From contig DAOVER010000042.1 in assembly GCA_030668875.1 (NCBI GenBank), positions 1 to 24,973 of the forward strand: a stretch of DNA of 24,973 nucleotides. Reading direction: 5' to 3'. A model generated the notes under the pieces. That model worked only from the letters and a program-made list of their open reading frames with translations. It did not search any database and had not been told where the DNA came from. Numbering within the stretch: position 1 is the stretch's first letter; the number at the start of each line of letters is the position of its first letter. Source of the stretch: Candidatus Heimdallarchaeota archaeon. GTDB lineage: Archaea > Asgardarchaeota > Heimdallarchaeia > Heimdallarchaeales > Heimdallarchaeaceae. Below, piece by piece: positions 1 through 20,222 of this stretch. Made by a program: the position numbers and the translations under genes.

Positions 1-1256
1 GGTCCAAAGGGAGAGATAACAGTTATATTATGCTTTCGTGCTCTGGCTCTTCTGATAGCTCTAATAATTCTATCAGGATGAGATTCTAAATCTGAAATTA
101 CTACAATATAGGCTGCACGTTTTACTCTTTGTAAGAGATAATCAATTGCAACTTCCAAATCCGCTTCTCCTTCAGGTTTAGCATGAGCAAGCGACTCTAG
201 AAACTGAAATAGACGAGATCTCACCGAAGTTATATCAACCCAATTCCTTATCTTATCATCATAGATACATAATCCTACTAGATCCTTTTTCTCGAATGCA
301 AGATGTATAAGAAGTACAGCACTTCGGATAGCATACTCTAGTTTAGTATTTCTAGGTAGACCTGCACCCATGCTTACAGAAGAATCTACTAACACAATCA
401 CACGTATATTCTCTTCAGATTCATATTCTCTAACCATCATCTTTCCTGAACGAGAGAAAGCTTTCCAATCTATAAATTTGAAAGGATCACCTGTCTGGTA
501 TTTTCGTATACCCCAGAAATCTGAACCCATACCTTTTATTTTTGTTCTATGGAAACCAAACAGAACACCTAGTTGTCTTTTCTTGCCAATCATTTCCAAT
601 TTCTTAATATCTTCATAACTTGGATAAACTAAGATTTCTGTCTTTGTAATTATCTCGCCTTCTGTAGCATAGAATCCCATTCGATCTCTTATAATAACTT
701 TAGTAGGACCTATCTCAAAAACACCTCTTATTGGGATTCTAACGACATATCCATAAGTTACTGTCTGTCTTGGATTCAGTTGCGTAACGATAAAATTTTC
801 ACCTAGAATTAAATCGAAAACTTCTGGAATTGCGTCATAAATCTCAACAGTTGGTAATTGATTTACGGATTTATTCCTAGCAGTCACCTCTATGTATACA
901 TAATCTCCTGCGAAAGCCTTGGGCTTTGAAACTTTTCTTGTTATTTCTATTGATTTTGGGTTAGCTCCTAATCTGTAAAATGGTAATCCTAACAGAACTG
1001 AAAAGATTAACATTACTCCACCGATTATGAAAAACCAGATTAGAGTTCCTTCTGTATCAAGATAGAAATGTAAGAAATCCATTATACCTATACCTTGATT
1101 TTCAGCAGGACCTCCAGTTGTTGTGGAGTTTACTTGGGGGTTTACACCAAATGAATCTAACATGGTATTTAGTGATAAGTAGCCCATTAGTGCAAAGCCT
1201 ACGCTAATCATTATGATTCCACCAAAGACTAGCCAACCACCTCGGCGTGTGAACAC
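1..1256 (-). CDS. DUF58 family protein (N-terminal TM segments, Ig-like domain, vWA-like domain), module 1; 3' end runs off the window
   Basis: Not in the ORF track; translated by hand. GTG at 1256 follows AGGTG, and the frame is open to base 1: MFTRRGGWLVFGG...KGMGSDFWGIRKYQTGDPFKFIDWKAFSRSGKMMVREYESEENIRVIVLVDSSVSMG...VVISDLE...ISPFG. Contains the DUF58 signature (R.Y..GD....IDWK..R...VRE) and MIDAS-like DSSVS; lies directly downstream of moxR. Confidence 0.92.
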   Translation of the reverse strand, partial: MFTRRGGWLVFGGIIMISVGFALMGYLSLNTMLDSFGVNPQVNSTTTGGPAENQGIGIMDFLHFYLDTEGTLIWFFIIGGVMLIFSVLLGLPFYRLGANPKSIEITRKVSKPKAFAGDYVYIEVTARNKSVNQLPTVEIYDAIPEVFDLILGENFIVTQLNPRQTVTYGYVVRIPIRGVFEIGPTKVIIRDRMGFYATEGEIITKTEILVYPSYEDIKKLEMIGKKRQLGVLFGFHRTKIKGMGSDFWGIRKYQTGDPFKFIDWKAFSRSGKMMVREYESEENIRVIVLVDSSVSMGAGLPRNTKLEYAIRSAVLLIHLAFEKKDLVGLCIYDDKIRNWVDITSVRSRLFQFLESLAHAKPEGEADLEVAIDYLLQRVKRAAYIVVISDLESHPDRIIRAIRRARARKHNITVISPFG

Positions 1257-1284
1257 TATATTACACCTAATTTGTTTATTTCAT

Positions 1285-2298: not shown

Positions 2299-2320
2299 TT
2301 TTCCTTAAGTTATTTTTATC

Positions 2321-4120
2321 TTATAATCTATCAATTAATCCTTTAATAAATGTCATATATCTCATAAACACTAGTTCAGATATGAATCTTGGCCTAGCAA
2401 GATATGCATCTATTCTTACTAAATTATCATAAAGATCCTTAAATCTCATTGAGGGATATTTTATACTGAAGTATTCTGCTATTTCTTCTGGCGAAGACAT
2501 TGATTGTTTTGACATTTTTCTTAAACCTCTTACCAGTGATCTATACAGAAGACCAACAGCTTCACTATATGCACCTGTGCCAACTATTCGCCGTATCTCT
2601 CTCTCAAAACGTGATTTTCCTTGTTCTCCTCTATATTTTGTCCATAACACTGGGGATAATCGTGTTTTCTTTGGTATTAATGGGTAAGCAATTACTGCAA
2701 GCAAGACAGGTACAAAGGGCGAATAAAGTGGAAACATCGACATTTCAGTAATAAATTTCATTATTGCCATGGAGTATACTGAAGGACTGTAAAACTTTTG
2801 ATGAGCATGACCTTCATCGAAGATAATAGGGATAGCACTTCCTACAGTTACATTCATATCGCTTGCTAAATAGTTGAACAAATTCCTACTAAATATCAAA
2901 TTGTCATTTTCTTCGGTTTTGTCAATCCATTTGTTAATGAAAATGTCAGGATCACCAATCATTACTATTTTGCCTAACCCTATTGGTAAGGTCATAATTG
3001 GAGCAAACATAACATTTCCCCACTCATCCGCATCAGGAAAGGCTTCACCGTCTTTCGCTGATTGGAAATCAGATTCCATCCATGCAGATCTTGAAGTATA
3101 GAACGGAAGGAAGGGGAGAAACATATCTTCTATTTCGAAACCAAATAATTCCAATGAAATAGCTTGTAACGGCATCCAGTCAGTTTTTTCTTCTCCAGTT
3201 ATGGTGTCATTGTGTCTGATAGCCAAACTCAAAACTGTTCCAAACTCCATTTGCAAACCTTTGGATATACCTTCAGTTAGAGGATTTGATGTTTCCATAT
3301 TCCTTAGAATCGGTTGAGCAGGATTTGTTGTATATGTTTCAGCATCCATGAGAACTGATCCATTAAATGCAAAACCTCTCAACATTCCCAACATACTGAA
3401 TATCAGTGTTTCAGGACCACCTGTCTGATTTTCTCCACCAAATCCAAATAAATCTAATAAGGAGGGGATTGTTCCATTACTAAGATCAGCTACATCATCC
3501 CAACTATTAAGTAGTGAGAAGAATGGTTCGAAAATCTGTGCTCCCGTACCATAATCATCTGCTATAACCAAACTACCTCCTCTTGCCAAGAATGTTACTA
3601 AAGATATTGTATCAATAGTACCGTAATTTGCTGCAGGACCAATGATTGCGACAATTCCAGGATCAGAAAGACGATTTAGTACCGCAAGTGAGGACATACC
3701 ATTTGTGATATTATAGCCTTCGCTTTCCAAATTAGATCTTAAGCTGGTTAATCCATCCCAGCCTTCATTATAAATACTGAACTTTGTTCCATATCCAGCT
3801 AAGCCAACCAGTCCCAGTAAGATGGGTACCACAATAATAATAAAAAGTATAAACATTGCAATGGAATATTTTGAGAAGTTTCTAACGAATTCAGACATCA
3901 AGTATATAGTCAGAATCACAATAGTTACCACTATCATCATAGCTCCAATTTCTCGAGAAAATATGTAAGCTACAATTGTTCCTACAATAGCCAAGATTTC
4001 GACCACTATGAATAAAGCTAACTTTTTCGGAGATATTTGTATGTTTATTCTCTTCTTAGCCTCTGGTCTTGATCTTCTTTCTCTTGACTTGTTTCTTTGT
4101 TTGTTGTCTGGCTGGTTCAA
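2321..4120 (-). CDS. DUF4350-type membrane protein: 3 N-terminal TMs, extracellular GATase-like/GIFT-like domain, TM, then a cytoplasmic DUF4129-like tail; TTG start
   Basis: Motifs FSIYNEGWDGLTSL, GGSLVIADDYGTG, GKIVMIGDPDIFIN and IIFDEGH are typical of archaeal DUF4350 proteins. Sits immediately upstream of moxR. TTG at 4120 follows GGTG. Confidence 0.75.
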   Translation of the reverse strand: MNQPDNKQRNKSRERRSRPEAKKRINIQISPKKLALFIVVEILAIVGTIVAYIFSREIGAMMIVVTIVILTIYLMSEFVRNFSKYSIAMFILFIIIVVPILLGLVGLAGYGTKFSIYNEGWDGLTSLRSNLESEGYNITNGMSSLAVLNRLSDPGIVAIIGPAANYGTIDTISLVTFLARGGSLVIADDYGTGAQIFEPFFSLLNSWDDVADLSNGTIPSLLDLFGFGGENQTGGPETLIFSMLGMLRGFAFNGSVLMDAETYTTNPAQPILRNMETSNPLTEGISKGLQMEFGTVLSLAIRHNDTITGEEKTDWMPLQAISLELFGFEIEDMFLPFLPFYTSRSAWMESDFQSAKDGEAFPDADEWGNVMFAPIMTLPIGLGKIVMIGDPDIFINKWIDKTEENDNLIFSRNLFNYLASDMNVTVGSAIPIIFDEGHAHQKFYSPSVYSMAIMKFITEMSMFPLYSPFVPVLLAVIAYPLIPKKTRLSPVLWTKYRGEQGKSRFEREIRRIVGTGAYSEAVGLLYRSLVRGLRKMSKQSMSSPEEIAEYFSIKYPSMRFKDLYDNLVRIDAYLARPRFISELVFMRYMTFIKGLIDRL

Positions 4121-4508
4121 CTAATTCTACACCTTGTTCTCTAATTCCACGGAAACATATATCTAATCTCTGGATGGCCTCTTGATAGTCATCATATGTT
4201 ATTTCAGTGTCAGTATATCTAGCAATTTCAAAGGATGTAAGATACTCGTCCATAACTTCTGTGGAGATATTAGCTCTATTAGCAACTGAAAAACCGAATT
4301 CTCTTCCAGTTTGATAAATTGCACGGGACATACTAAGTAACCCATGAGCAATGTTATTTAATCCTCCAAAGGAAGCTATAACGGCACCTTTGTAATCTTG
4401 TCTTTGCTCAAATATCCTTACATCTGCCATGACAGATGTAAACATCTGGTTTAATGATTTAACTTGTTTTCTTTTCTTGAAGAACCCAAAGATACCTCTA
4501 TGACTCAA
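4056..4508 (-). CDS. Stand-alone soluble DUF4129-like protein (150 aa); TTG start
   Basis: YKGAVIASF...QTGREF...FEIARY...IT..D aligns by eye with the DUF4129 tail of the upstream gene. GGTGA lies 8 nt before the TTG. No TM segment. Confidence 0.75.
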   Translation of the reverse strand: MSHRGIFGFFKKRKQVKSLNQMFTSVMADVRIFEQRQDYKGAVIASFGGLNNIAHGLLSMSRAIYQTGREFGFSVANRANISTEVMDEYLTSFEIARYTDTEITYDDYQEAIQRLDICFRGIREQGVELVEPARQQTKKQVKRKKIKTRG

Positions 4509-7500
4509 TTTTCATTTCACCTACTTCTATTTTATCTACTATTTTTAATAATGCACGTAATCCGGAATTGAAGTCATTTTCAGTTATTTCTTCATATCCA
4601 TATCGTGCTTTTTCGAAATATGAGAGAAGTGTATACATTATCTCTCGTTCAATTTTGCCTTTTTCAGCAAGCAATCGCGAAAACTCCCAAGGAGTTTGAC
4701 TTTTATATCTTGGTAAGTCGAAGAATTCTCGACCGATACCCTCTACCACTGTCCAGGTTTTTATTAGCCCCTCTTGGTATCTTCCTTCCAATCCATCTCT
4801 TTTGATATCTTCTATTATCTCTTTTAGATAGTCACGTAATCGGCGTCTGAAGGTTTGTTTCTTTGCATAAGATTGCAGAGAATGCCTATTAAACCACAGG
4901 AAAAGAATTGCAACAACTGCTACAATACCTCCTATAACACCTCCAATTATAGCACCGATACTACCTGTTATTCCACCAGGTGGTGGAGCGACAGGACTAT
5001 CATTAATAACAACCAAATTCACTGAAGTTGTGGATCTGGAATTTTCAACAGCATCTACTGCTTCAATAAAATATTCCAACAAAAAATTACCATAAAAAGG
5101 TAATTCTATATTTGAGAGATTAAATGTTGCCTCAAATACATCAGAGATTCCAACGCGGATCATAGTGATATTATAATCCACTTCATTATAGGTAATATGT
5201 AATATTACCCCTGATACTGAAGTGAGGACATCTGTCACTGTTGCAGAGAATTCAAGTACCGTATCAGGGGTTATATATGATACATTTCCCGCTACAGCGA
5301 CATTACTAATTGTGGGTGCATCACTATCAACAGCTTGCACGGTCTGCATTGATCCTAAGAGAGGATTTGATGCGGGTAATGCCGTATCATAGGCAATATA
5401 ATACCACTCATACTCGTAATTATATTGAAGCGTAAGCTGATAGAACCATTGATTGGTACTAGTAATATTAGTCATTAAAGCTACAATATAATCTGTTTGA
5501 TTCACAAGTGTAACTAAATTGTGACTATTAACATGAAGTGTGACATTTTTCATACCGCTCCAAACAATACTATCGTTGATGAATACAGTAATGTTAATGT
5601 ATGGGTTTGTGGGGTTACCAGAGGGTATAATAGTCGGTACTTGCTCCTCAAATGGTTCAATAAAATCACCTAGTTGGAAGGTATTGTAACCTGTATATGT
5701 ATTATTCCAATAATAATCTGCATCATAGTATAGAAGGGCGTTAGTTTGTTTTGCACCAAATTCATCTAAACCATGTCCTGCATAATCTTTCACTTCGACA
5801 TAGAATCTGACATAATATTGTGATTCTGCTACAGTTGCATTAATCATGCCTCTATACTGATCCCCTCCAACATGCCATAGCGTAAAGGATTGCCACCCGC
5901 CTACTGATGTATTACCTAGTGGCTCTAAATAATTAAAGAAAAACTCTACTGATCTAATTCCTGTGTCAATATCAATAACATAAATATCGAATTGAATGAT
6001 GAAATATGGATCGTGAATTCCAGGATCGTAAGGATCAGGAGTCACAACCTCACCTGTAACGGCTGGTCTGTTGTTATCAGGTCCATAAATATTAATTGTG
6101 CGAGTTATTGAGGTAGCTGGGGCATAATCACCACCAGAAGCTACTAACGACAGACCTGGATAAGCATGAGTGTCCTGAAGTATTGACAGAAAATTAAGAG
6201 CAGTGAAATCAACCCAATTCTTCGTTGAAGTAATTAGGAGATTGGATGTTTCAACATCACCACCATTTGTTAATGTAATGAAAATATTTACCTTTTCTGG
6301 TAATCTTAACCATTGATCAGTTACCATCAAAGTATAATTGTGAGTTGCATCAAGAGCTCCCCAGAAAGTACTATTAAATACAGTAGATGTTGTTCCATCT
6401 AAAATATTTGCTCCACTAGGATCAGTTAGAGTTAGTATAAGTGCAAAATAAGTATTGAATACAGAATTATTTAAAGCTCCAGCAACAACTGCATAACGAT
6501 AATCTGCTCCAGAAACAGCTAGAGCTGTAACTGTTATTGTTTTTGTTTGTGTCTCATTAGTGGAATAATCTGGAATGACAGTATCAACGTGTCTTGACCC
6601 TGTTGCAACAGAGTATGGTTGAACAATTGAATCAGGGAAGTTCAGTTGGAAACTAGATGATTGAGCAGGATTGCCATACTCATCATAAAGAGCAACATCA
6701 TAGCCAATATTATTGCCTGTTGTGTAATATCTTACGGCATCATCTAGATCTAAATCAATTCTTGTAATATTAACTGCTAATTGTCCCTCTAAACTATCAT
6801 GAGTTAAAGTTGATCCAACAAATTCATCCCCGTTAGGATCTATTAAGAAATTAAAAATAAGCACATCTGTTACATCAGATATGTTGGTACCATCAAAATA
6901 AAATGTATCTTGAATCTCAGCTGTAGGATTAGATGTTACATAATCGTTAGTATAAATAGTTCCCTCTCCAGCTCCAGAAATCGTCAGTCTGACAGTTGAA
7001 TCAGGTTCTAAGCCCAATTGTGAGGTTAGATTCGCATAAACTGTAATTGATGTACCTCCAATGATTTCAGTTGGAGTGTTAATTTTACTTGGTCCCACTA
7101 TAAAGTAGGCATCAACAACCACTTGGTTCTCTGTAGCATCTACAACAGTTTCATAAATCAATCTATCATTTTGAATATCGCTGGTTCCTTCGTCTGTAAA
7201 GAAATTATACCCAAGTTGATCAATATCATAATACGCTTCATAAGTGACATCATCTACCAAAACAGGGGCAGTATTTGAATAAAGATCTTGATTGGAGGAG
7301 AAAGTTCTGTTATTATCAAAATGTATACCGTCAAGTAACCAACCGACCTTAAGACTGTATTCTGTTCCAGTAGAATCGATAACTGTATCATTATCAAATA
7401 AAATTCGAGTATTAAATGAATAAGAAGCAGACGGATTTGTGACATCAACAGTTACATCTACTTTAATTTGTCCAAAATAGAAAACATTTACATCTCCTGG

Positions 7501-8166
7501 ACTCCCCGCCCCTCTCCCCATGCCTGGGTTACCATAGAACCATGCAAGAAGAGTAATTTCCCCAATCTTAGAGAAGGGGTCTATAGAAAGAGCGGAAGTA
7601 GTTAATTGGATAGTAAACTCGCCTTGAGCATTAGTTACAGCACTTCCAACTTGATATTGAGGTGTTTCATATGTTACAGGACTACTGATATATTGACTTT
7701 CAGTAACATTGTAGAAAAGCCAAACAGTTTCTCCGCCCCAATAATCTCCAACAACAATGCCTTGCAAAACGCCCTCTACATCAATGAGAGTGTCTCTAAG
7801 AATATATTCATTGGCTGTTGGAGATGTTATACTTTTCATTATCGTTGGCATTGTTTGAATTTCCGTGTCAACACCTTGAACTGTCAACTCACTATTTTTA
7901 GGAGAATAAATCACTTTATTTTCAGATTCGATTTCCGGTAGCACAGAATCTTCTACCAAATCTGGAAAATACTCATATCTAGTTGGCGCATATGTATTGT
8001 CAACTATGTTTTGTGACCCTTGCCCAAATATATATGTTGGAGAACTAATTTCGTCGTTTTGCTCTTTTATTATACTCTGAGTTTGTACAAAAGCAACTGT
8101 AGACAATTGTATAATGAGTATTAGAAAGAAAATCATTCCTGTTAGTTTTGTTCTAATACTCTTCAT
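4498..8166 (-). CDS. Large single-pass surface protein (1222 aa): signal/anchor, ~1050-aa acidic beta-rich ectodomain with Ig-like repeats, TM, C-terminal DUF4129 domain
   Basis: Hydrophobic N-terminus; about 22 NxS/T sequons counted by hand; TM GAIIGGVIGGIVAVVAILFLWF; tail QTPWEF...YFEKARYG. ATGA overlap with the upstream stop. Confidence 0.85.
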   Translation of the reverse strand: MKSIRTKLTGMIFFLILIIQLSTVAFVQTQSIIKEQNDEISSPTYIFGQGSQNIVDNTYAPTRYEYFPDLVEDSVLPEIESENKVIYSPKNSELTVQGVDTEIQTMPTIMKSITSPTANEYILRDTLIDVEGVLQGIVVGDYWGGETVWLFYNVTESQYISSPVTYETPQYQVGSAVTNAQGEFTIQLTTSALSIDPFSKIGEITLLAWFYGNPGMGRGAGSPGDVNVFYFGQIKVDVTVDVTNPSASYSFNTRILFDNDTVIDSTGTEYSLKVGWLLDGIHFDNNRTFSSNQDLYSNTAPVLVDDVTYEAYYDIDQLGYNFFTDEGTSDIQNDRLIYETVVDATENQVVVDAYFIVGPSKINTPTEIIGGTSITVYANLTSQLGLEPDSTVRLTISGAGEGTIYTNDYVTSNPTAEIQDTFYFDGTNISDVTDVLIFNFLIDPNGDEFVGSTLTHDSLEGQLAVNITRIDLDLDDAVRYYTTGNNIGYDVALYDEYGNPAQSSSFQLNFPDSIVQPYSVATGSRHVDTVIPDYSTNETQTKTITVTALAVSGADYRYAVVAGALNNSVFNTYFALILTLTDPSGANILDGTTSTVFNSTFWGALDATHNYTLMVTDQWLRLPEKVNIFITLTNGGDVETSNLLITSTKNWVDFTALNFLSILQDTHAYPGLSLVASGGDYAPATSITRTINIYGPDNNRPAVTGEVVTPDPYDPGIHDPYFIIQFDIYVIDIDTGIRSVEFFFNYLEPLGNTSVGGWQSFTLWHVGGDQYRGMINATVAESQYYVRFYVEVKDYAGHGLDEFGAKQTNALLYYDADYYWNNTYTGYNTFQLGDFIEPFEEQVPTIIPSGNPTNPYINITVFINDSIVWSGMKNVTLHVNSHNLVTLVNQTDYIVALMTNITSTNQWFYQLTLQYNYEYEWYYIAYDTALPASNPLLGSMQTVQAVDSDAPTISNVAVAGNVSYITPDTVLEFSATVTDVLTSVSGVILHITYNEVDYNITMIRVGISDVFEATFNLSNIELPFYGNFLLEYFIEAVDAVENSRSTTSVNLVVINDSPVAPPPGGITGSIGAIIGGVIGGIVAVVAILFLWFNRHSLQSYAKKQTFRRRLRDYLKEIIEDIKRDGLEGRYQEGLIKTWTVVEGIGREFFDLPRYKSQTPWEFSRLLAEKGKIEREIMYTLLSYFEKARYGYEEITENDFNSGLRALLKIVDKIEVGEMKIES
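5000..6078 (-). repeat. Three tandem degenerate Ig-like protein repeats (starting near residues 697, 834 and 947 of the 1222-aa protein)
   Basis: Recurring pattern D..P......V.D..(S/T)G(I/V)..V.(F/L)...Y/W...A.D: DNNRPAV...VIDIDTGIRSVEFF...EVKDYAGH; DFIEP...INDSIVWSGMKNVTLH...IAYDTA; DSDAPTI...VTDVLTSVSGVILH...EAVDAVEN. Similarity is at protein level only. Confidence 0.6.
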
Positions 8167-11270: not shown

Positions 11271-11592
11271 GGTTTTGCCTCATATTAGTAAAAGGTACTG
11301 TGCACTAGATGGTTACCCTATTAACGTTATACAACCGCTTTATTCAAAAACTTTTTGTGATATGTAATGACATTGTTTCTCTAAGATATAAAAAAAGAAT
11401 AAGTTTTTTTAAACCAATTCCTTTAACTTCTTATAATTTAATATTTAATATTACTAGTACAGTAAATGTATAAGTATACTAAACAGCTAGAGCTAACTTC
11501 AAAAACGGATGTCATACATTCATTAAAAAACAAACTGAAAACAGTTTTATTTAGCAGTAATAACTATAAAACTATTTCAGTAAAAATCCAAG
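11271..11592. promoter_or_regulatory. Divergent promoter region shared by module 1 (minus) and thyX (plus)
   Basis: 322-bp very AT-rich gap between divergent starts. Candidate BRE/TATA GAAAACAG-TTTTATTT near 11537-11552 for thyX. Short palindromes TACTAGTA and AGTATACT. Exact elements unresolved. Confidence 0.6.
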
Positions 11593-12297: not shown

Positions 12298-13138
12298 TGT
12301 TATTAATTGAAATATTTTCAATGTCATCTTCAGTTGCAACTGTATCAGAATTTTCCTCTTGTTGTTGATCATCTTGTGTATCTACATCTACAATCTTGGG
12401 CAGAATTGCATTGGTTCTTATTAATACAACAGAATATATTATAGCTACTAAGATCAAAGAAGGACGAATTATGTATTCTGCTATGGAATCTTCGGGTATA
12501 AGGTAAAAAATCATTAAGGCATAAAGGGCAGCAAGGGTAGCGAAAATTATCAATATTAAAGATGGCCACAGCATCCTTTTCAATAGTACAATCCATTTTT
12601 GCAAAGATTTAATTTCTTCAGGAGATGTATATTCAAAATCAGTTTTTATTAAATTGTCCTTATATTGTCGCACTTGTTCTTTTGTATACTGACTCTTTGT
12701 TCTTACAAATGTATGTTCTTGTTCGAAGTATTCCATATAATAAAAAGTTGACAGAAAACGTAAGCCTATACATAACCCGGCCAAGGATTGATATATTATA
12801 ATGTCTACTCTACCCAAAGTAGCTGGGAAAAACATTGAGTTCGGGTTAGCTAGAAGAAGAGACAGTATCGTGCCAAATACAAAGAAGAGTCCAAAAGCAA
12901 CTTCAGAGGACATTTTTATATGAGTTCCTTTTATAAGATCTGTCATCAATATTACTATTCCAAGTACCAACCATATTGTGAAGATATAGATATTCAAACT
13001 AAAAGCTGATTGGATGACAATTAAACTAATAGCTAAAGCTCCAAATAGATGATGGACACTTGCAATGAAAGTAGACCCTAGAGCTGTCAGAGAAGTTAGT
13101 TCCCAATCTTCCTCAAACACTTTGTCCTTTATTCTCAT
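12290..13138 (-). CDS. Hypothetical multi-pass membrane protein (about 6 TMs, acidic tail); last gene of module 2
   Basis: Long ORF with alternating hydrophobic segments. ATGA overlap with DUF58 copy 2. Its stop overlaps the thyX 3' end by 8 bp. Confidence 0.75.
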   Translation of the reverse strand: MRIKDKVFEEDWELTSLTALGSTFIASVHHLFGALAISLIVIQSAFSLNIYIFTIWLVLGIVILMTDLIKGTHIKMSSEVAFGLFFVFGTILSLLLANPNSMFFPATLGRVDIIIYQSLAGLCIGLRFLSTFYYMEYFEQEHTFVRTKSQYTKEQVRQYKDNLIKTDFEYTSPEEIKSLQKWIVLLKRMLWPSLILIIFATLAALYALMIFYLIPEDSIAEYIIRPSLILVAIIYSVVLIRTNAILPKIVDVDTQDDQQQEENSDTVATEDDIENISINNTT

Positions 13139-14517
13139 GATGATCGCCCCACTGCTTCTTGTACCAGTCTCTGGGTTGGAGAGTATTTTTTCATTAATCG
13201 GTATAAAGATAAGATGATATTATCGTCATATCCAAATATATCAACATAATCTCCACGAATTGAATACAGTATTTGACGTAATTCTATCTCCCTTTTTCTA
13301 TATTCTTCACTCACAATACTTGGAAAAACATATTTCAGTATCTCCCCATAATTCATATCTTCTGTCCTATCCAACATCCAGTCATGGGAGGATAGAATAT
13401 TGAAATGCATAGTAGCAAAATTAACAAAAACCACTCTACTCCCCATGGTTTGAAGTAGATGTATGCCCTGTAGTTTTTTTATTAAGTCACCTTCTAAATC
13501 GGAAAATATTATAGCTATAGAATGTATCACATTATTGTTTTTGGTAAATTTAACAGCATTAAGGAAACTACTATGAACACCAGTAGCATCAATATCATAT
13601 AGGTTGAGCATAAGTCTTAGTTCATGCTTTCCTACTTGTGGTATTATGTATTTTTGCACATTTTCAGAATAAGCTATCACAGCCAAATCATGATTAGTGC
13701 CTTTAATCAACGAACATAGTTCAACTACTGAAGATAAAGCATACTCGAACTTGGGTCCATACATAGTACTGCTAAGATCAAGATAAATCAAGAAATGCAA
13801 GTTTCTTTGGTCTTCAAACTCTCTTGATATCAATTTATCATGTCTTGCGGTAGCATACCAATCGATGTGCTTCAGTTGATCCCCAGGTAAATAATCTCGG
13901 AGCGCGAAAAATTCATCGCCTCTTCCCTTAACTCTCTGAGCAAATTCATGAACCATTTTCAACAATAGTTCTTTCTTTGTCTTCCATGGTATGTTAATAC
14001 GAGGTCTTTGAGGTAGTATCTTTATTTTTTGTGTGTCTTTCAATATTCGTTTATGTTTGAAAAGAAACTGAAAGGATCCAACGGAAATCTCAATTGGACC
14101 AATTTCGCCATTTCCTCTTCTAGTGGCAAGCAATAACCAAACAATTTTCGTTTTTTTCTTTGGTGATAATTTGATTAGTACTGTCTCTGCTTTGTCTATA
14201 CTCTTAAAATGAAACGAGAAACTGAGACTAATTTTCGTAAGAATTGTTCTTCTAGATGGATTTGTTAATTCAACTGCTACAGCTAACAAACCTCTACTTC
14301 TCATAAAATCCTTTGAGCAACTCATTTTTGTATTAAAAGAATAAGTATGCGAAAATAAGAAGGAAATAAATGTGGAAGTAATAACTAGCCAGAATAAGAC
14401 ACCAGGAACTATAAGAAGTAAATTATCTATTGCTAGGCCTAATATCACAAATAGACTCCCGAATAGAATGAACGCCTTACCATTCTTTGTAAGTTCAAAG
14501 TGTCTTTCTTCTTCCAT
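13135..14517 (-). CDS. DUF58 family protein, module 2
   Basis: KGRGDEFFALRDYLPGDQLKHIDWYATARHDKLISREFEDQ, YLDLSSTM and IFSDLE; N-terminal TM hairpin; directly downstream of moxR copy 2. Confidence 0.93.
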   Translation of the reverse strand: MEEERHFELTKNGKAFILFGSLFVILGLAIDNLLLIVPGVLFWLVITSTFISFLFSHTYSFNTKMSCSKDFMRSRGLLAVAVELTNPSRRTILTKISLSFSFHFKSIDKAETVLIKLSPKKKTKIVWLLLATRRGNGEIGPIEISVGSFQFLFKHKRILKDTQKIKILPQRPRINIPWKTKKELLLKMVHEFAQRVKGRGDEFFALRDYLPGDQLKHIDWYATARHDKLISREFEDQRNLHFLIYLDLSSTMYGPKFEYALSSVVELCSLIKGTNHDLAVIAYSENVQKYIIPQVGKHELRLMLNLYDIDATGVHSSFLNAVKFTKNNNVIHSIAIIFSDLEGDLIKKLQGIHLLQTMGSRVVFVNFATMHFNILSSHDWMLDRTEDMNYGEILKYVFPSIVSEEYRKREIELRQILYSIRGDYVDIFGYDDNIILSLYRLMKKYSPTQRLVQEAVGRSS

Positions 14518-14538
14518 CGGAAATCTCTGCCTTTTGTT

Positions 14539-15483
14539 TTATATCACGACTTCTACATCAGAAAGGATGTTTTCAATTATCTCAGGAATATGGATTTGTT
14601 CGATTTCTGCTTCTGGAGAGAGTATTAGTCTGTGATTCATAACAGGAAAGAATATCGATTTGATATCATCAGGTTCTACAAAATCTCTACCTCTAATTGC
14701 AGCAATAGATCGACTCAGAGTAAGTAAAGCAATTGATCCTCTTGGACTTGCTCCAAGAGCTAAGGAAGGAATCGAACGTGTTGCAATTACTAGTTTCGCA
14801 ATATACTCAAGAATCTGATTACTTACAGTAACGTTTTTCTCAATTTCTGTTATTAATTTGATAATGGTTTTTTGATTAGTTACTGTCTCAACATCTGCAA
14901 ACATCTTTTCTCTTTTCTTAACAAGCATATCAATTTCTCCGTGAAGAGAAGGAGGATAAACAGGAATCTTAACTAGAAATCTATCAATCTGAGCTTCAGG
15001 AAGAGGATAAACTCCCGTAGATTCTATTGGGTTCTGGGTAGCGATAACCATAAATGGTTCTGGAAGTTTGAACGTTTGATTTCCAGAAGAAACTTGCTTC
15101 TCTTGCATTGCCTCTAACAAAGCAGATTGTGTTTTGGGTGGTGCTCTGTTGATTTCATCTGTCAGTAGTATGCTTGTGAAAACGGGTCCTTCAATAAATC
15201 TAAAAGAACTTGTTTCTCTTTCATATATGTTACCCCCTGTGATATCAGCGGGCATTAAATCGCTCGTAAACTGGATCCTTTTGAAACCCATTTTGATAAC
15301 ATCTGCTAAAGTACTAGCCATCAATGTTTTTGCTATTCCTGGAACACCCTCTAGAAGAACGTGTCCTTCACTTAGAAGAGAAGCAAACATTAGCTCGATA
15401 ACATTATCATTACCCACTATTCGTTTTTTCATTTGCTCCATTATTTTGTCAAAAATATCTTTTGCTTCTTGCACTTTTGTCAT
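14539..15483 (-). CDS. moxR: MoxR-family AAA+ ATPase, copy 2
   Basis: HVLLEGVPGIAKT, RIQFTSDLMPAD, ILLTDEINRAPPKTQSALLEAM, ATQNPIESTGVYPLPEAQIDRF, GRDFVEPDDIK. Confidence 0.96.
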   Translation of the reverse strand: MTKVQEAKDIFDKIMEQMKKRIVGNDNVIELMFASLLSEGHVLLEGVPGIAKTLMASTLADVIKMGFKRIQFTSDLMPADITGGNIYERETSSFRFIEGPVFTSILLTDEINRAPPKTQSALLEAMQEKQVSSGNQTFKLPEPFMVIATQNPIESTGVYPLPEAQIDRFLVKIPVYPPSLHGEIDMLVKKREKMFADVETVTNQKTIIKLITEIEKNVTVSNQILEYIAKLVIATRSIPSLALGASPRGSIALLTLSRSIAAIRGRDFVEPDDIKSIFFPVMNHRLILSPEAEIEQIHIPEIIENILSDVEVVI

Positions 15484-16769
15484 TTAAATCGTCCTCTTTT
15501 TTGTATCTCTTCAAGCATTTTGAAGAGTGAAAGGAAAGTTTTTGAATCAATTTTTCTTGTAAACGCTATTTCGAATAATTCTTTTTCCTCATCTGTAAAT
15601 TTCTCCAAATGAATATAACTTGCCTTCTTCATAAGATAATAATGATAAGCTTTCTGAGGATAAAGCTCATACTGGAAATACAAGTTTGATAGAAACTGTT
15701 CTTCAATCGTTGGTTTTATAGGAGAACCAAAAGTATCGTATAGTTCCCTCTCCCTAGACCAAATCCTATCCGATAAGAATTTCTTATAAGTTTCCTTTGG
15801 TTTGAATCTCTCTCTAAATCTCGGAGTAACATAGTATAAAATCAAAACAATCATAACTAGTAAGAAAATAAAGAGCTGGGTTTTTGATAATAGAACTATT
15901 GTCCCATAAGATTGGTTAATCATTCCCTCTGTTGTTGAAAAGGGCCATCTTTTATGGCTTTCTTCAAAACATACAAGTCTCTCTTCTCCCGAAGAATAAT
16001 GCTCCATCATATAGAGTGCGAGATTAATATTCCCAAAACCTTTGCTATAAAGATCGTTAGTTAGAAAACTTGGGGAAGAAATAACAACAATAAATCCATG
16101 TCCTCTTTTAAGAACTGTACCTACTTGTAAACTAGATGTATCTTCAGAATCAACATCCCAAATACCGTCTTGATTCTCATCTAAAAACGCGGTACTATGA
16201 GTACTTAATATACCGGCAGTCAGTTCTGTCTGTATTGAACTCTCTGCAATGTAAGACAGTTCTCTAGCTTCAATCATGCAAAGGCTAGTGTTTGAATTTG
16301 TAGAATTTAACATAATGATTTCTGGTGTTTTATAATAATAAGTTGTTTCTAATATTGTTGAGGTTGAAAGAAAAACCCCGAAGTGCTTTGCTAGAAGATT
16401 GGTAGGACCAGAACCAGCCAATATTACTAATAGACCACCCTGTAAAACAAAGCTGTCTATTGCTAATGTTTCTGAATCTTGATAGTTTTTAGAGCCTCCA
16501 GCAATGATAAGAGTTGATGATTCTAGAAGTTTAATGATGGGGTCTGTTGACAATATCGTTCTTGTGGTATTATATCCAGATTCAAGAAGCAAGCTGTTGA
16601 AATATGACATGCCCCCAGACCCCGTATTGCTTATAGAATATGGAGGTTGTGCGCTGGTAACATTGATACTAAGGGGGAGGATTATTATTAAAAATATAAC
16701 TAGAGTTTGGATAAGCATTTGGAACAATGGTGAATATTTCTTTGAAAATAGAATCGGCGCAGATTTCAT
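15480..16769 (-). CDS. DUF4350-type membrane protein, module 2 (signal/anchor, GATase-like ectodomain, TM, cytoplasmic tail)
   Basis: YSISNTGSGGMSYF, FVLQGGLLVIL, GHGFIVVISSPSFLTN and VCFEESH match the copy-1 motifs; same position upstream of moxR; ATGA overlaps at both ends. Confidence 0.75.
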   Translation of the reverse strand: MKSAPILFSKKYSPLFQMLIQTLVIFLIIILPLSINVTSAQPPYSISNTGSGGMSYFNSLLLESGYNTTRTILSTDPIIKLLESSTLIIAGGSKNYQDSETLAIDSFVLQGGLLVILAGSGPTNLLAKHFGVFLSTSTILETTYYYKTPEIIMLNSTNSNTSLCMIEARELSYIAESSIQTELTAGILSTHSTAFLDENQDGIWDVDSEDTSSLQVGTVLKRGHGFIVVISSPSFLTNDLYSKGFGNINLALYMMEHYSSGEERLVCFEESHKRWPFSTTEGMINQSYGTIVLLSKTQLFIFLLVMIVLILYYVTPRFRERFKPKETYKKFLSDRIWSRERELYDTFGSPIKPTIEEQFLSNLYFQYELYPQKAYHYYLMKKASYIHLEKFTDEEKELFEIAFTRKIDSKTFLSLFKMLEEIQKRGRFK

Positions 16770-17563
16770 TGTTCATCTTCCTCGCTAATTCTTTGAATAA
16801 TTTCGATATCCGCTTGAGCCGCACTCAAACTCTTTACTGATTCAAGTTCTTCGATGAAATCCAACAAATCTCTCCTTTTCATTTGTTGTTTTTTATATCT
16901 TGCAACATAGAAAGTTTGAATCATTGAATTTAAGTGGGGAAGAATATTAGGCAAATCGAGTGAGCTTGCAAATTCTTTGGGTGTAAGATAAGTTTCTCTG
17001 CTTATCCCTAGAATTTTCTTCATGTTCTCATCAAGTTGATGGTAACCAAAAATTATGCCTTCCGTATATTTTTTATCTCTCAAATATTCCCTAAGTACTT
17101 CTGAAAGTGTTTTTATTTGTGTTCTGAACTTTTCTCTTCGAGCCTGGAGTGTGCCTCCAGTAACCAAGGAACTTGGCACTGGTCTTCTTTCCTCAGTTTT
17201 TCTTCTAAAAAACAGAAAAGCGATTAGAATTATTATAACTATTCCAACTGCTATAGGAATAACTTGAGCAGGAATAATTGCTTCACTTCCACCCTGTGGA
17301 TTATTTGGTGGAATAGTTGGAGTATCAGTTGGAGTGGTAGGAGTGTAGGGATCAGTAGTATTGAATGGATCTGATGGGGAAGTAGTTGGAGAGGAAGTAC
17401 TTGTAATTAAATCATTTTCATCACGATTATCTATACTAACGTACGTTTCTTGAGTACTATTTACCAGAATGAATATTAGTACACAAGCGAAAATTAGAAA
17501 CAATCGAACATTAATATATTTCTTGAAATCAATCTTCACTTGTATCACCTTTTTGAACTTCAT
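16766..17563 (-). CDS. Small single-pass protein with a Thr/Pro/Ser linker and C-terminal DUF4129 domain; likely true start GTG at 17539
   Basis: N-terminal hydrophobic segment, T/P/S tract, TM IAVGIVIIILIAFLFFRRK, tail LTPKEF...FYVARY. GGTGA + 5 nt + GTG at 17539. Confidence 0.8.
   Translation of the reverse strand: MKFKKVIQVKIDFKKYINVRLFLIFACVLIFILVNSTQETYVSIDNRDENDLITSTSSPTTSPSDPFNTTDPYTPTTPTDTPTIPPNNPQGGSEAIIPAQVIPIAVGIVIIILIAFLFFRRKTEERRPVPSSLVTGGTLQARREKFRTQIKTLSEVLREYLRDKKYTEGIIFGYHQLDENMKKILGISRETYLTPKEFASSLDLPNILPHLNSMIQTFYVARYKKQQMKRRDLLDFIEELESVKSLSAAQADIEIIQRISEEDEQ
17290..17410 (-). repeat. Low-complexity Thr/Pro/Ser linker (TSTSSPTTSPSDPFNTTDPYTPTTPTDTPTIPPNNP)
   Basis: Imperfect AGTTGGAG-like repeats on the + strand, reflecting repeated Pro/Thr codons. 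Confidence 0.7.
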
Positions 17564-18539
17564 CTATTACTAGTTTGCTTTGACGAAGGAAAGCATAAAT
17601 TTTGCACAAAGGCCAATATCTGCTCAAGCACACTTGATATTTGTGAGCTGCTGTAAGATATCCCAAATAAGCACATCTTCCATCTTCATAATATATGCAT
17701 GTATCAGCTTTTTCTCTTCTAAGGATTAAATTAACTGTTCTATTCAAGTATACCATCGATAAAGCACTAAATTGCCTTTCGCTTCTCTTCGGAGGTTCGT
17801 CCAAATCGAAGATTGTTTTTACTGATAATGGCATATCTGGAAGAATTAAATGTGAGTAAGATACCTTTGAACCTTTCTTGGTTGTTGATATACTAGACAG
17901 AAGTTTACCTAAGCTAATACCAAGTGCCCCTCCAAGCCCACTTACTAGGGTTAGCGAAAATGCAAATATGAATAGGAACCCAAAGGCCAAACTTTGTATG
18001 GATGAGCTATCGGTACCAGCAGAGCTCAGTGAAGTAAATAGAATTATCTGGGAGAAGTAAAGAAGGATAAAGAAGAGAAGAGAAAAAACAACGGTTGGAA
18101 TGATGAGATCTTGAGCTTCTTCTCTCCATATAATACCAGCAATTATACCAGAAAGGAGAAAGGGTATGAAGGCCGTAATTATGTAATTAGAGAGTAGTAC
18201 GAAGGGGTCTGTATATGTACCTTCAAATGCAAATTTAAATGGTAAAACTAAAAAGGACTGAGGAGTCCAAACAACGTCAGATACAATGAATTGGTCTTGG
18301 AGGAAATGGTAAAGGACACCAAAAAACATTGAAAAAGCATATCCAATTGCCATGTAAGTTGAGATTCTTAGAATAAGTTTAGTAATATACTCCCGTTTTC
18401 CTCTATTTTTCAAATGAGGAAAAATTAATTTATACATGAATTCCCTATAATTCATCTTGAGTGGAGTGGTACCTCCTTTAACCTTTGGGCCTTCATCTAC
18501 TGGAAGAGGGGGTCGTTGTGTAATTACCATATTATTCAC
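17529..18539 (-). CDS. Hypothetical membrane protein (about 4 TMs) with a C-terminal cytoplasmic Cys4 putative Zn-binding domain; likely true start ATG at 18530
   Basis: Four hydrophobic segments, then CIYYEDGRC-x14-C-x7-C. The annotated GTG lies inside GGTGA, which is 5 nt before ATG 18530. Confidence 0.75.
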   Translation of the reverse strand: MNNMVITQRPPLPVDEGPKVKGGTTPLKMNYREFMYKLIFPHLKNRGKREYITKLILRISTYMAIGYAFSMFFGVLYHFLQDQFIVSDVVWTPQSFLVLPFKFAFEGTYTDPFVLLSNYIITAFIPFLLSGIIAGIIWREEAQDLIIPTVVFSLLFFILLYFSQIILFTSLSSAGTDSSSIQSLAFGFLFIFAFSLTLVSGLGGALGISLGKLLSSISTTKKGSKVSYSHLILPDMPLSVKTIFDLDEPPKRSERQFSALSMVYLNRTVNLILRREKADTCIYYEDGRCAYLGYLTAAHKYQVCLSRYWPLCKIYAFLRQSKLVIDEVQKGDTSED

Positions 18540-20222
18540 CTATATAACTATCAATCTAACTCCTTTTGAAGTTTTTAATAGAAAGTAAACACTTGCAGAA
18601 GCTAATGTAAGTGTGCATAACATAACTATGATTCCATAGACCATCAATGAGATAGTGATTATCAAAAGTACTGAAAAAATTATCATATACAATGAGGTCA
18701 CAATTAGTGATATTGCAACAATTGAAAGAAGGTTTATGGAACTTATAATAGATTTTACTCTGTGTTGTTTATATCTGTACCATACCACGGTTGCGAATAA
18801 TGCAATTACAATAGAAAGTAAGAATAAAGAATAACCTAGGAAAGACACTGTATCTTCAATAGTAGTAAACGTAAAAATAAAGCTGATAAATATCCCAATA
18901 GCCAGAAATCGAGTAAATCCAACTGCAATTGAGGAGAAAAATGGTGGGGAGGAGGAACTCATCTTTTCGAATAATGCATCTACTTCTGTTCCACAGGACC
19001 AACAAACACGTGCAAATTGCGGTAGTACTTGATTGCAGTTTCGGCACTGGATTTTAGGGAAAGACCAACAATTCAGACAAAATTCCCCATTATATACTGG
19101 TGTTCGACACTGTGAACATACCATCAAATTAGTTTTTTCATCATAAAGAGGTTCTGTGTTCTTCATTTTCTCAAGATCTTCCTTTAAAGGGGGTGAGTGA
19201 GAAGAAATATCTGGACATAGCTTCTCAATGTGTTGAGTAAAACATTTAGGACAAAAACTAGGAACAGAGAGCATTATCACTAAAACAAATATCCCAAACA
19301 AAACATAAGATAAGTTTCCAAGAAGAGAAGAGATCAGCAATATCGTTTCCTCACCTGTGCTAAAATTCCATAAACTATGGAAAGAAATGCTCAAAATTAG
19401 AAACAAACCGCAAATTACTATTCTCGTATATTTTGGAAGTTTATTGCGATATAGGAATGCTAACCCCAAACCTGTAGCAGCTAACATAGTTGTTACGGTG
19501 TGTAAAGGGTAGATGCTTCGAAGAGGAACTAAGAAATCAACAGCGGTTTCAGGGTTAGAAGAATATAAAAGAAATTGTTCAAATAAATCAAACCATGCAC
19601 CAAAAAATCCTCCAAACATAACAAAAATTCTGAATGAAGGTGTAAGTCTTGTATGAATTGATCGTTTAGCATTGAGATTTAATCTAGCATAGTTTCCAAA
19701 CAAGATGATTATGGGGAAAATCTTTGCTATTTCTTCAACTATAGGAATAATAAGTAAGAAGAAGATATTATGTATGATCTGATATACCACAGGAAATGAG
19801 TCTGACGACGAGAAAAATCCAGAAGTAAAGGTCACCAAAATAAAAAATTCCTTTTCTATAATTACAGCAAAATAAGGGGACAGAACCCCCACCACTAAGA
19901 GGAGAGAAAAGAGTTTCTTGATTAGCTTGGTTTCAAGTTGAGTGCTTGTTATACTAAATAGGAAATAAATACATGTTACCCAGAGAATGAAAAATACTGT
20001 AATTATGAGAATTATAACAATAGGAAAATATACAGAATTTTCGTATCTAGTAACAATGGTAACTAGGAAATAAGCGAGAACCGTTAAAAAGACTAAAGAT
20101 ACAACTTTAGCTAGTGTTGAGAAACTCAAGATGCGCTTGTGTATTGGTTCAATGATTAATAATTCTTCAACTGGAGTATCTGCTTCTTTTTTCTTAGCTG
20201 AAACATTAACCATTGTTCCCAA
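18540..20222 (-). CDS. prsW: PrsW-family (M82) intramembrane metalloprotease with internal zinc-ribbon domains and extra C-terminal TMs
   Basis: All four PrsW motifs in order: IVEEIAK, FDLFE, PLHTV, FHSLWN. Then CPKC..H..C and four CxxC pairs (CSQC, CLNC, CRNC, CWSC), followed by about 4 more TMs. Confidence 0.85.
   Translation of the reverse strand: MGTMVNVSAKKKEADTPVEELLIIEPIHKRILSFSTLAKVVSLVFLTVLAYFLVTIVTRYENSVYFPIVIILIITVFFILWVTCIYFLFSITSTQLETKLIKKLFSLLLVVGVLSPYFAVIIEKEFFILVTFTSGFFSSSDSFPVVYQIIHNIFFLLIIPIVEEIAKIFPIIILFGNYARLNLNAKRSIHTRLTPSFRIFVMFGGFFGAWFDLFEQFLLYSSNPETAVDFLVPLRSIYPLHTVTTMLAATGLGLAFLYRNKLPKYTRIVICGLFLILSISFHSLWNFSTGEETILLISSLLGNLSYVLFGIFVLVIMLSVPSFCPKCFTQHIEKLCPDISSHSPPLKEDLEKMKNTEPLYDEKTNLMVCSQCRTPVYNGEFCLNCWSFPKIQCRNCNQVLPQFARVCWSCGTEVDALFEKMSSSSPPFFSSIAVGFTRFLAIGIFISFIFTFTTIEDTVSFLGYSLFLLSIVIALFATVVWYRYKQHRVKSIISSINLLSIVAISLIVTSLYMIIFSVLLIITISLMVYGIIVMLCTLTLASASVYFLLKTSKGVRLIVI

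Follow-up and report, generated by a model that had tools for sequence, protein, structure and literature searches.

Two probably ancient lineages of a MoxR-DUF58-DUF4350-DUF4129 envelope module, side by side in the Heimdallarchaeaceae

Introduction

When two neighboring operons of one archaeon repeat the same four genes behind unrelated lead genes, are they copies made by a local duplication and put to different uses, or are they two old lineages of one module, and what might such modules do in the cell envelope? The locus that raises these questions fills a stretch of 24,973 bp (contig DAOVER010000042.1, called the window below), which is one complete contig of a metagenome-assembled genome (MAG) of 3.2 Mb in 99 contigs from a member of Candidatus Heimdallarchaeaceae. 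Its operon B (genes B1 to B7, from 20222 to 12290) and operon A (genes A1 to A6, from 11270 to the contig end, beyond which a seventh gene, A7, is expected) both lie on the minus strand and have in common the order DUF4129-like gene, DUF4350 gene, moxR, and DUF58 gene. Operon B is led by a putative PrsW protease gene, and operon A by a gene for a protein of transglutaminase (TGase) fold.

An earlier note on this DNA had described two co-oriented, ATGA-coupled operons that repeat the core order behind unrelated lead genes. Gene calls and Pfam matches agree with that description, as does BLASTP, which finds no similarity between the lead genes of A and those of B. The note had also taken the core to be locally duplicated, a step that the results below largely contradict, and had assigned an adhesive or scaffolding input to one operon and a proteolytic input to the other, which stays an interpretation. 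The best explanation, to which we give a probability of roughly 0.55, is that the window holds two old module lineages, each of which would build one trans-membrane complex in which MoxR and DUF58 work on DUF4129 tails. The two parts of this explanation carry different weight. That the operons are two anciently diverged members of an archaeal DUF4350 (arCOG01314)-MoxR-DUF58-DUF4129 envelope module family is very probably correct; the mechanism, drawn from features of the protein sequences, is tentative, and the odds run somewhat against it.

Two probably old lineages of one module

The two cores are far apart in sequence, with A and B sharing 50% identity in MoxR, 26% in DUF58, and 29% over 100 residues in DUF4350. 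In the MoxR tree, the A proteins form one clade (support 100/97) and the B proteins another (96/94), each with members from all four families; B joins a third type, C (described below), at 100/99, and A joins proteins from Loki, Njord, another Heimdall lineage, and the Asgard locus L083 at 96/86. The DUF58 tree has the same topology as the MoxR tree, and for DUF58 the union of A, B, and C in one clade is rejected by an approximately unbiased (AU) test (p 0.00098, with a log-likelihood difference of 42). In the DUF4350 tree, the A4 clade (local support 100) is nested among Thor-, Promethe- (Loki), Njord-, Baldr-, and Gerdarchaeota proteins, and B4 and C4 stand apart from it, among Heimdall and Kari proteins only. 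In a phylum-wide search with the type B DUF58 protein, the loci outside Heimdallarchaeia that match B6 are closer to A6.

The trees of MoxR, DUF58, and DUF4350 thus agree, a congruence on which the earlier note had made its reading depend, and the three core genes appear to evolve congruently as modules, with A and B as old separate lineages that are adjacent in one family. The same results count against the local duplication that the note had proposed: the DUF58 test, the 26-50% identity, and the placement of A with other Asgard classes and of B with a separate Heimdallarchaeia lineage all speak for an older split.

Conservation of the pair and spread of the module

In a DUF4350 search of 30 relatives, at least 11 of the 18 same-genus genomes have a pair of DUF4350 genes on the same strand of a single contig, separated by about 12.5 kb. 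Full synteny of B1-B7, thyX, and A1-A7 is seen in four same-genus genomes and in three further Heimdallarchaeaceae genera, and the pair is present in the closed genome of Ca. Heimdallarchaeum endolithica (CP084167.1). An assembly chimera or a chance arrangement was considered and rejected, since the pair recurs in a closed genome and in many MAGs. The side-by-side pair with thyX between its members is a stable trait of Heimdallarchaeaceae.

In three other families of the order (f2, f3, and f4), both operon types are present, at separate loci. The seven-gene, PrsW-led order is kept in f2, f3, and Kariarchaeaceae and is rearranged in f4, and a PrsW-led core of type B occurs in f5; among the genomes sampled, type B appears to be limited to Heimdallarchaeia. 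The expectation that lead genes would be syntenic with their cores in relatives is borne out, with PrsW-led operons across the Heimdallarchaeia families examined and TGase-led operons across Asgard archaea including Loki. The type A operon of f3 is broken up: MoxR-A and DUF58-A lie away from A1-A4 in an inverted block that reads DUF58, MoxR, A7 (L058:8594-12788, L059:8186-10831), and at the old position a GTP cyclohydrolase I gene follows A4.

The Loki locus (L077) consists of a TGase of 1192 aa, proteins of 757 and 128 aa, DUF4350, MoxR, DUF58, and a protein of 496 aa. At L083, a single 1156-aa protein joins TGase, Big, and DUF4129 domains and is followed by DUF4350, MoxR, DUF58, and a 400-aa protein; this is a fused, TgpA-like form in an Asgard archaeon. 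Cores resembling A are also found in Njord, another Heimdall lineage, and four further Asgard families. Three more loci, one of them reached through a Thermoplasmatota-named DUF4350 cluster (L080; the others are L081 and L082), have DUF4350-MoxR with DUF58 close by, and two of the three have a Pfam-called DUF4129 protein as well. A DUF4350 profile built from these proteins gathers 7471 clusters. The four-gene core is therefore common, and operon A is a split version of this standard architecture in which the TGase is predicted to be inactive.

The type C module of f3 and f4 (L049, L051, L053, L062) comprises a DUF4129-tailed protein of about 400 aa, DUF4350, MoxR, and DUF58; type C was not found in the window's genome. 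That genome has a third MoxR-DUF58 locus (G000:C33, L006:10125-19999), with a helix-turn-helix regulator, MoxR, three membrane proteins, DUF58 (312 aa), and a 620-aa CARDB/IgGFc-binding-like protein; its MoxR belongs to a separate clade, E, present in all four families.

Rates of change differ within the modules. Within the genus, identity is 82-87% for MoxR, 83-86% for DUF58-A, and 81-87% for A3, against 38-49% for A1, A2, B1, B2, and B3, a contrast that fits a constant engine with exposed, changing outer parts.

Operon A: a transglutaminase fold without its catalytic Cys

A1 has N-terminal transmembrane (TM) segments, a large ectodomain with a TGase-fold core, and a C-terminal TM segment (all protein topologies given here are predicted from hydropathy). 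Its Transglut_core (PF01841) score of 22.3 bits falls just under the cut-off of 23, and firm matches to this family are on record for the H. endolithica and Loki orthologues of A1 and for the L083 protein. The signature motifs R..GIPAR and YGWVE are present, and the positions of the Cys-His-Asp catalytic triad are occupied by Ile478, Tyr523, and Gln547. In an alignment of 10 orthologues, which represent four Heimdall families and Loki, the column of the catalytic Cys is occupied in every one by I, A, L, S, or P, the His is kept only in f3 and f4, and the Asp position is Q or N in all Heimdall proteins and D only in the Loki protein. Because the catalytic Cys is absent from all 10 orthologues, and because Cys314 of factor XIII aligns with the same column, A1 reads as a TGase-fold pseudoenzyme and not as a transglutaminase, a state that is probably old. 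Type A as a whole can be described as the pan-Asgard, TgpA-like form, which has lost the catalytic Cys and carries its TGase and DUF4129 parts in two genes.

The second of these genes, A2, encodes a surface protein with a signal or TM segment at 6-30, an ectodomain of about 1030 aa, a TM segment at 1064-1095, and then a cytoplasmic DUF4129 domain (PF13559; residues 1150-1205, 26.2 bits against a cut-off of 24.8). The ectodomain has 0 Cys and 22 NxS/T N-glycosylation sequons, and the protein evolves fast (38-45% identity within the genus). The earlier note had seen a giant receptor beside a DUF4129 protein; A2 itself carries the DUF4129 domain of operon A, and an extra free DUF4129-like protein, A3, does follow it.

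The window stops short of A7, since the contig breaks off within A6, the full-length orthologues of which have 482-483 aa. In every relative examined, A7 lies directly after A6 and is a six-TM protein of about 500 aa, and A7-like genes follow DUF58 also in Loki, another Heimdall lineage, and three of the four further Asgard families sampled. For A7 there is no Pfam family and no informative protein-atlas neighbor; with its AlphaFold2 (AF2) model (predicted local distance difference test [pLDDT] score 70.3), no PDB entry reached E<=0.001 in Foldseek, and atlas TM-scores went no higher than 0.24. Kinship with EMC3/TMCO1 was entertained and dropped, as it came from one orthologue at E 5e-4, below the cut-off, with no further support. 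A7 and B7 are unrelated (hhalign probability 2.6%), and the common core therefore stays at four genes.

Operon B: a PrsW-family protein and its neighbors

For B1 of the window, Pfam gives no PrsW (PF13367) match even at E<=5, the only match being DZR at E 3.5e-4. Its orthologues do match PF13367, for which the cut-off is 23.5 bits: P0002, 84% identical to B1, reaches 36.2 bits and the Kariarchaeaceae protein 62.5 bits, and the family is on record in 23 of 34 B1 homologues. The motifs P..EE..K, G..F...E, R...PlH, and H..WN are invariant in 14 sequences from five families, as are five CxxC pairs across five families; the motifs that define PrsW we take to be EExxK/R, a downstream F...E, and His motifs including HxxxN/D. 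The architecture combines a PrsW part with a CxxC..H..C site, a double zinc ribbon insert, and a C-terminal bundle of four TM segments. Because the orthologues pass the PF13367 cut-off and both motif blocks and Cys pairs are invariant across families, B1 is a predicted PrsW intramembrane protease (MEROPS M82) that carries, in addition, a zinc-ribbon insert on the cytoplasmic side and a TM bundle at its C-terminus. Where PrsW had been placed beside a zinc-domain membrane protein, the PrsW assignment stands, the double zinc ribbon proves to be part of the same protein, and the second membrane protein is B2, with four conserved Cys.

These residues of B2 (C281, C289, C304, and C312) are invariant, and the proteins encoded second in the B-type operons of other families share the motif C..Cx[YF]LG..C..C. 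Among 33 homologues of B2, all those with a named source come from the Heimdall group, and no functional name is attached to any of the 33. AF2 models B2 poorly (mean pLDDT 59.9, below 50 in the Cys-rich domain). B7 has no family match in Pfam, NCBIfam, or the protein atlas; across the family it keeps its position, with 35-52% identity. In the protein atlas, the closest neighbors of A7, B7, and B2 score 0.75-0.85 and are all unnamed clusters, leads at most.

The shared core proteins

Both MoxR proteins match Pfam families well above the cut-offs: A5 has AAA_3 at E 2.5e-65 (218.7 bits) and AAA_lid_2 at 79.8 bits, and B5 has AAA_3 at E 4e-63 (211.6 bits) and AAA_lid_2 at E 9e-22 (77.0 bits). In their translations, the Walker A motif GVPGIAKT is intact in both, and Walker B reads LLADEINR in A5 and LLTDEINR in B5. 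Each has a bpMoxR match too, with a score far below that for AAA_3.

Each DUF58 gene lies directly downstream of its own moxR. A6 matches DUF58 (PF01882) at E 1.6e-35 (122.7 bits) and VWA_2 at E 1e-10 (42.7 bits), and B6 matches DUF58 at E 3e-16 (59.6 bits). At the metal-ion-dependent adhesion site (MIDAS; DxSxS), A6 has the canonical DSSVS and B6 has DLSST, in which Thr replaces the last Ser. A6 has two N-terminal TM segments, and B6 has one 37-residue hydrophobic stretch at 12-48 that is read as an N-terminal TM hairpin. Because basic residues precede the N-terminal TM hairpin, the immunoglobulin (Ig)-like and von Willebrand factor A (vWA) domains of the DUF58 proteins are predicted to be cytoplasmic, beside MoxR.

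DUF4350 (PF14258) scores 44.4 bits in A4 and 38.3 bits in B4, against a gathering cut-off of 30.4. B4 has an N-terminal anchor, a GldG-like ectodomain of flavodoxin fold, a TM segment, and a cytoplasmic helical tail. At its N-terminus, A4 has about 45 extra hydrophobic residues relative to all orthologues, with a TTG start and a 65-nt overlap with A3; its true start codon is uncertain. In G008, a genome of the same genus, the type A DUF4350 gene (L038:5532-7184) is split by one in-frame TGA into open reading frames (ORFs) of 393 and 151 aa, which could reflect a pseudogene or a sequencing error.

The A2 tail recovers the other DUF4129-like proteins by BLASTP (A3 at E 1e-7, B3 at E 1.9e-6), and Pfam DUF4129 matches are on record for positional orthologues of A3 and B3, including that of Kariarchaeaceae for B3. 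B3 has a signal anchor and a short, Thr/Pro-rich outer stalk (ectodomain of about 50 aa), with TM segments at 14-40 and 92-123. No TM segment is predicted in A3, which keeps its operon position in f2, f3, f4, and Loki operons. A2, B3, A4, and B4 are thus all predicted to be bitopic, with the bulk outside and a helical DUF4129-like tail inside.

An NCBIfam search of ten products gave nothing meaningful, and no kinase, phosphatase, FHA, beta-propeller, effector, or DNA-binding output was found among 13 products (Pfam, E<=0.01) or ten products (NCBIfam). A complex prediction for the cytoplasmic part of DUF58-A with MoxR-A and A3, made with proteins of the sister genome G001, scored 0.74; since it scored 0.74 also with chain 1 replaced, the three-chain prediction counts neither way.

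Gene layout and neighborhood

Operon extent was judged from gene spacing and synteny (Table 1), since a search of sequencing runs listed no RNA and turned up DNA from marine sediment and cold seeps only. ATGA overlaps join B3/B4, B4/B5, B6/B7, and A1/A2, and the remaining junctions range from a 65-nt overlap to a 28-nt gap. The thyX gene and B7 are convergent and overlap by 8 nt, and thyX and A1 are divergent, with a 322-bp AT-rich spacer between them; because thyX lies on the plus strand between operons A and B, these are two separate transcription units. The thyX gene stands between the operons in every Heimdallarchaeaceae genome examined (64-67% identity) and has no obvious functional link to them. 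AT-rich, TATA-like stretches lie upstream of A1 and of B1.

An ORF of 84 aa with two predicted TM segments lies 156 nt upstream of B1 and may be an eighth gene of operon B. It is found at the same position in same-genus genomes (34-40% identity), weakly in H. endolithica, and a T-rich stretch follows its stop codon. Four more genes lie upstream of it, the last of them running off the contig end.

Table 1. Positions of the two operons, of the genes around them, and of A7 copies at other loci
Feature	Position	Strand	Length or match	Description
B1	18540-20222	minus	560 aa, or 557 aa from ATG at 20213	predicted PrsW-family protein, double zinc ribbon, polytopic
B2	17529-18539	minus	336 aa	membrane protein, 3-4 TM, conserved C-terminal 4-Cys domain
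B3	16766-17563	minus	265 aa	predicted bitopic, cytoplasmic DUF4129-like domain
B4	15480-16769	minus	429 aa	DUF4350
B5	14539-15483	minus	314 aa	MoxR-proper AAA+ ATPase
B6	13135-14517	minus	460 aa	DUF58, Ig-like and vWA-like domains
B7	12290-13138	minus	282 aa	polytopic, about 5 TM
thyX	11593-12297	plus	Thy1, E 5e-62	between operons B and A
A1	8163-11270	minus	1035 aa	transglutaminase-fold membrane protein
A2	4498-8166	minus	1222 aa	predicted type-I surface protein, C-terminal DUF4129
A3	4056-4508	minus	150 aa	free, predicted soluble, DUF4129-like
A4	2321-4120	minus	599 aa	DUF4350, predicted cytoplasmic DUF4129-like tail
A5	1285-2298	minus	337 aa	MoxR-proper AAA+ ATPase
A6	3-1256	minus	418 of ~482 aa	DUF58/vWA, 3' end lost at contig end
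A7 copies elsewhere	L045:14992-16500, L038:1509-3086, L090:1428-3032			
ORF upstream of B1	20379-20633	minus	84 aa	two predicted TM
TPR protein	20776-21498	minus		
CofE	21654-22403	minus		F420-0:gamma-glutamyl ligase
FrhB/FdhB-like protein	22425-23480	minus		F420-dependent Fe-S protein
DDE transposase	23952-24971	minus		runs off contig end

Relation to known systems

The closest described relative is archaeal. In their section on arCOG01314, Makarova, Galperin, and Koonin (2015; PMC5898192) predict that this DUF4350 family forms, together with MoxR and a vWA protein, a complex for secretion or membrane remodeling in archaea. A single predicted operon encodes an anchored DUF4350 protein with a flavodoxin-like (GldG-like) ectodomain, a COG0714 MoxR, and a protein that combines Ig and vWA domains, and further membrane proteins or Ig-like surface proteins are encoded nearby. 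Operons A and B both have the parts by which that section defines the complex. The differences are also clear: the paper predates Asgard genomes and has 0 occurrences of transglutaminase, DUF4129 and PrsW are absent from its section 3.2 and Table 2, and the neighbors listed there are S-layer-like DUF1616 proteins. The vWA protein is taken there as secreted and is placed here, by prediction, in the cytoplasm.

In Pseudomonas aeruginosa, PA2875 is presumably a MoxR, PA2874 a DUF58 protein, and TgpA a TGase with a C-terminal DUF4129. The tgpA gene is co-transcribed with PA2875 and PA2874 and is essential, and its outward, periplasmic TGase domain is active (Milani et al. 2012, PMC3507681). The Cys-His-Asp triad of TgpA is intact, whereas A1 lacks the Cys and, in Heimdallarchaeaceae, also the His and the Asp; the PA2875-PA2874-tgpA cluster has no DUF4350, and here TGase and DUF4129 are split between two proteins, with the lead genes first, in the reverse order.

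In the mycobacterial moxR2 locus, Rv3690 presumably encodes a DUF4129 protein. In M. chelonae, the orthologues of Rv3689 to Rv3695 are co-regulated, with Rv3691 being DUF4350, Rv3692 MoxR, and Rv3693 DUF58 (PMC8191103). The likeness to this locus that the earlier note had put forward for the whole core thus holds for its DUF4350-MoxR-DUF58 part, Rv3691 to Rv3693, and membrane proteins flank the core as they do here, but these flanks are SpoIIM-like and RDD proteins, not PrsW or TGase.

Two further systems combine related parts with signaling proteins. The Bifidobacterium PFNA operon (pkb2, fn3, a MoxR ATPase, duf58, and tgm; PMC12067865) likewise gathers MoxR, DUF58, and a transglutaminase with an Ig-like (FN3) surface protein in one cluster, but it includes a Ser/Thr kinase and no DUF4350, is species-specific and host-linked, and its TGase is not known to be inactive. 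In the Esr pathway of Schaalia odontolytica (bioRxiv 10.64898/2026.09.08.750141), the surface sensor is a filamentous Ig-repeat protein that is retained by a TGase and works together with MoxR, vWA, kinase, and FHA proteins; an outer part that diverges and an inner part that is conserved, as seen here, are features both of Esr and of the ternary MoxR-vWA conflict systems (Kaur et al. 2020, PMC7159879). Esr, however, needs a beta-propeller head, a kinase, a phosphatase, and FHA, none of which was found here, and its TGase is taken as active. By the Pfam and NCBIfam scans, neither operon A nor operon B has the beta-propeller sensor and the effector or kinase/FHA genes that characterize the ternary conflict and Esr systems.

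Bacillus subtilis PrsW is the site-1 protease of the anti-sigma factor RsiW. B1 resembles it in its motifs (EExxK, F...E, H, HxxWN) and in having orthologues that score above the cut-off of the Pfam PrsW family, but it differs in its predicted cytoplasmic zinc-ribbon insert, its four extra TM segments, and its fixed operon with MoxR, DUF58, DUF4350, and DUF4129. We know of no sigma or anti-sigma factors in archaea.

The suggestion that the arrangement had not been described before needs dividing. The archaeal DUF4350-MoxR-vWA core was already described in 2015, and the PrsW-led type and the side-by-side pair appear to be new to the literature; none of the papers searched contains both PrsW and MoxR. 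The pan-Asgard pseudo-TGase state is a new variant.

Proposed mechanism and alternatives

In the mechanism that we favor, each operon would build one trans-membrane complex. A cytoplasmic MoxR hexamer and the membrane-tethered vWA domain of DUF58 would serve as ATPase and adaptor, and their targets would be the DUF4129-like tails that the DUF4350 and DUF4129 proteins extend into the cytoplasm and, in type A, the free A3 as well. ATP-driven remodeling of these tails might then assemble, hold, or gate a unit on the cell surface for the processing or anchoring of surface proteins. For type A, we picture this unit as a non-catalytic TGase-fold scaffold that holds A2, the fast-evolving 1222-aa glycoprotein; for type B, we picture it as the PrsW protease, for which B2 might be a substrate or a partner.

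Several points weigh against this account of two old lineages with a common mechanism. On the side of descent, a single clade of A, B, and C is not rejected when the AU test is run on MoxR alone (p 0.062), the DUF58 tree was built by quick search, and FastTree was used for DUF4350, on the best 150 of 7471 clusters. On the side of mechanism, the cytoplasmic placement of the DUF58 vWA domain is drawn solely from hydropathy and the positive-inside rule, and the arCOG01314 section of Makarova et al. 2015 (PMC5898192) reads the vWA protein as secreted. A3 (E 0.011) and B3 (E 0.012) score about 16 bits, under the Pfam DUF4129 cut-off. Since A5 and A6 are detached and inverted in f3, co-transcription is not obligatory, and a dead TGase fold could have any binding role.

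An unlikely alternative is signaling across the envelope, of the kind known from Esr and the MoxR-vWA conflict systems: the variable ectodomains would sense something outside, such as a virus, an epibiont, or a partner cell, MoxR-DUF58 would relay the signal, and PrsW would cleave B2 and free its 4-Cys domain. PrsW is known as a site-1 signaling protease. The fast-changing ectodomain proteins on a conserved cytoplasmic core suit this idea, the Esr pathway does use an Ig-repeat surface sensor, a TGase, MoxR, and vWA in sensing, B2 always adjoins PrsW and keeps its 4-Cys motif across families, and both MoxR proteins match the bpMoxR profile too. However, their AAA_3 scores are far above their bpMoxR scores, the Pfam and NCBIfam scans found no kinase, phosphatase, FHA, beta-propeller, effector, or DNA-binding output in either operon, the TGase that anchors the sensor in Esr is predicted to be catalytically dead here, and cleavage of B2, the model of which is of low confidence, is pure conjecture.

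Quite improbable, in our judgment, is a dedicated secretion or insertion system that exports the adjacent large surface proteins, with A7 or B7 as the channel. MoxR ATPases are chaperone-like remodelers and not translocation motors. A2, B3, and B4 have ordinary N-terminal signal or anchor segments suited to Sec, type B has no large cargo (the B3 ectodomain is only about 50 aa), and A7 has no detectable likeness to a known channel or insertase; these points stand against the large surface protein almost always found upstream of DUF4350, the conserved polytopic membrane protein that ends each operon, and the proposal published for arCOG01314 neighborhoods in the section cited above. Tandem duplication of one four-gene core in this lineage, with the copies then gaining different lead genes, would account for the shared core order, the shared orientation, and the adjacency of the operons, and the MoxR test stops short of rejecting it, but it is highly improbable in the face of the DUF58 test, paralogue identities of just 26-50%, the grouping of MoxR-A, DUF58-A, and DUF4350-A each with Loki, Njord, and other Asgard proteins and not with B, the separate loci of A and B in three other families with all families in each clade, and the presence of type A with a TGase lead already in Lokiarchaeia.

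Significance

Archaea, mycobacteria, and many other bacteria carry the MoxR-DUF58-DUF4350-DUF4129 module, which makes it a very widespread one. Asgard archaea are the closest known relatives of eukaryotes, and in one of their families, this locus brings together two deep lineages of the module, each tied to a different protein-processing fold: a TGase that is apparently dead and a PrsW with its motifs intact. Because the lead parts are protein-processing or anchoring folds (the dead TGase, PrsW, and the active TGase of TgpA and Esr), the locus suggests that the module may use ATP to control or assemble the enzymes and scaffolds by which surface proteins are processed or anchored.

A bolder version of the mechanism, which we regard as a long shot, would make type B an archaeal pathway of regulated intramembrane proteolysis: the DUF4350 and DUF4129 surface proteins would perceive a cue from the envelope or from outside, MoxR-DUF58 would turn it into gating of PrsW, and PrsW would cut B2 and free a zinc-binding cytoplasmic factor. 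If that were true, the pathway would be a sigma-factor-free counterpart of the bacterial PrsW/RsiW cascade, and the module would gain its first concrete role, as gatekeeper of a surface-protein-processing enzyme; the same logic would account for its pairing with transglutaminases elsewhere.

Type A occurs in Lokiarchaeia, a class with cultured members, and therefore offers a practical entry point. It marks a conserved, fast-evolving surface glycoprotein system of Asgard archaea that could be sought in cryo-electron tomography and proteomics data.

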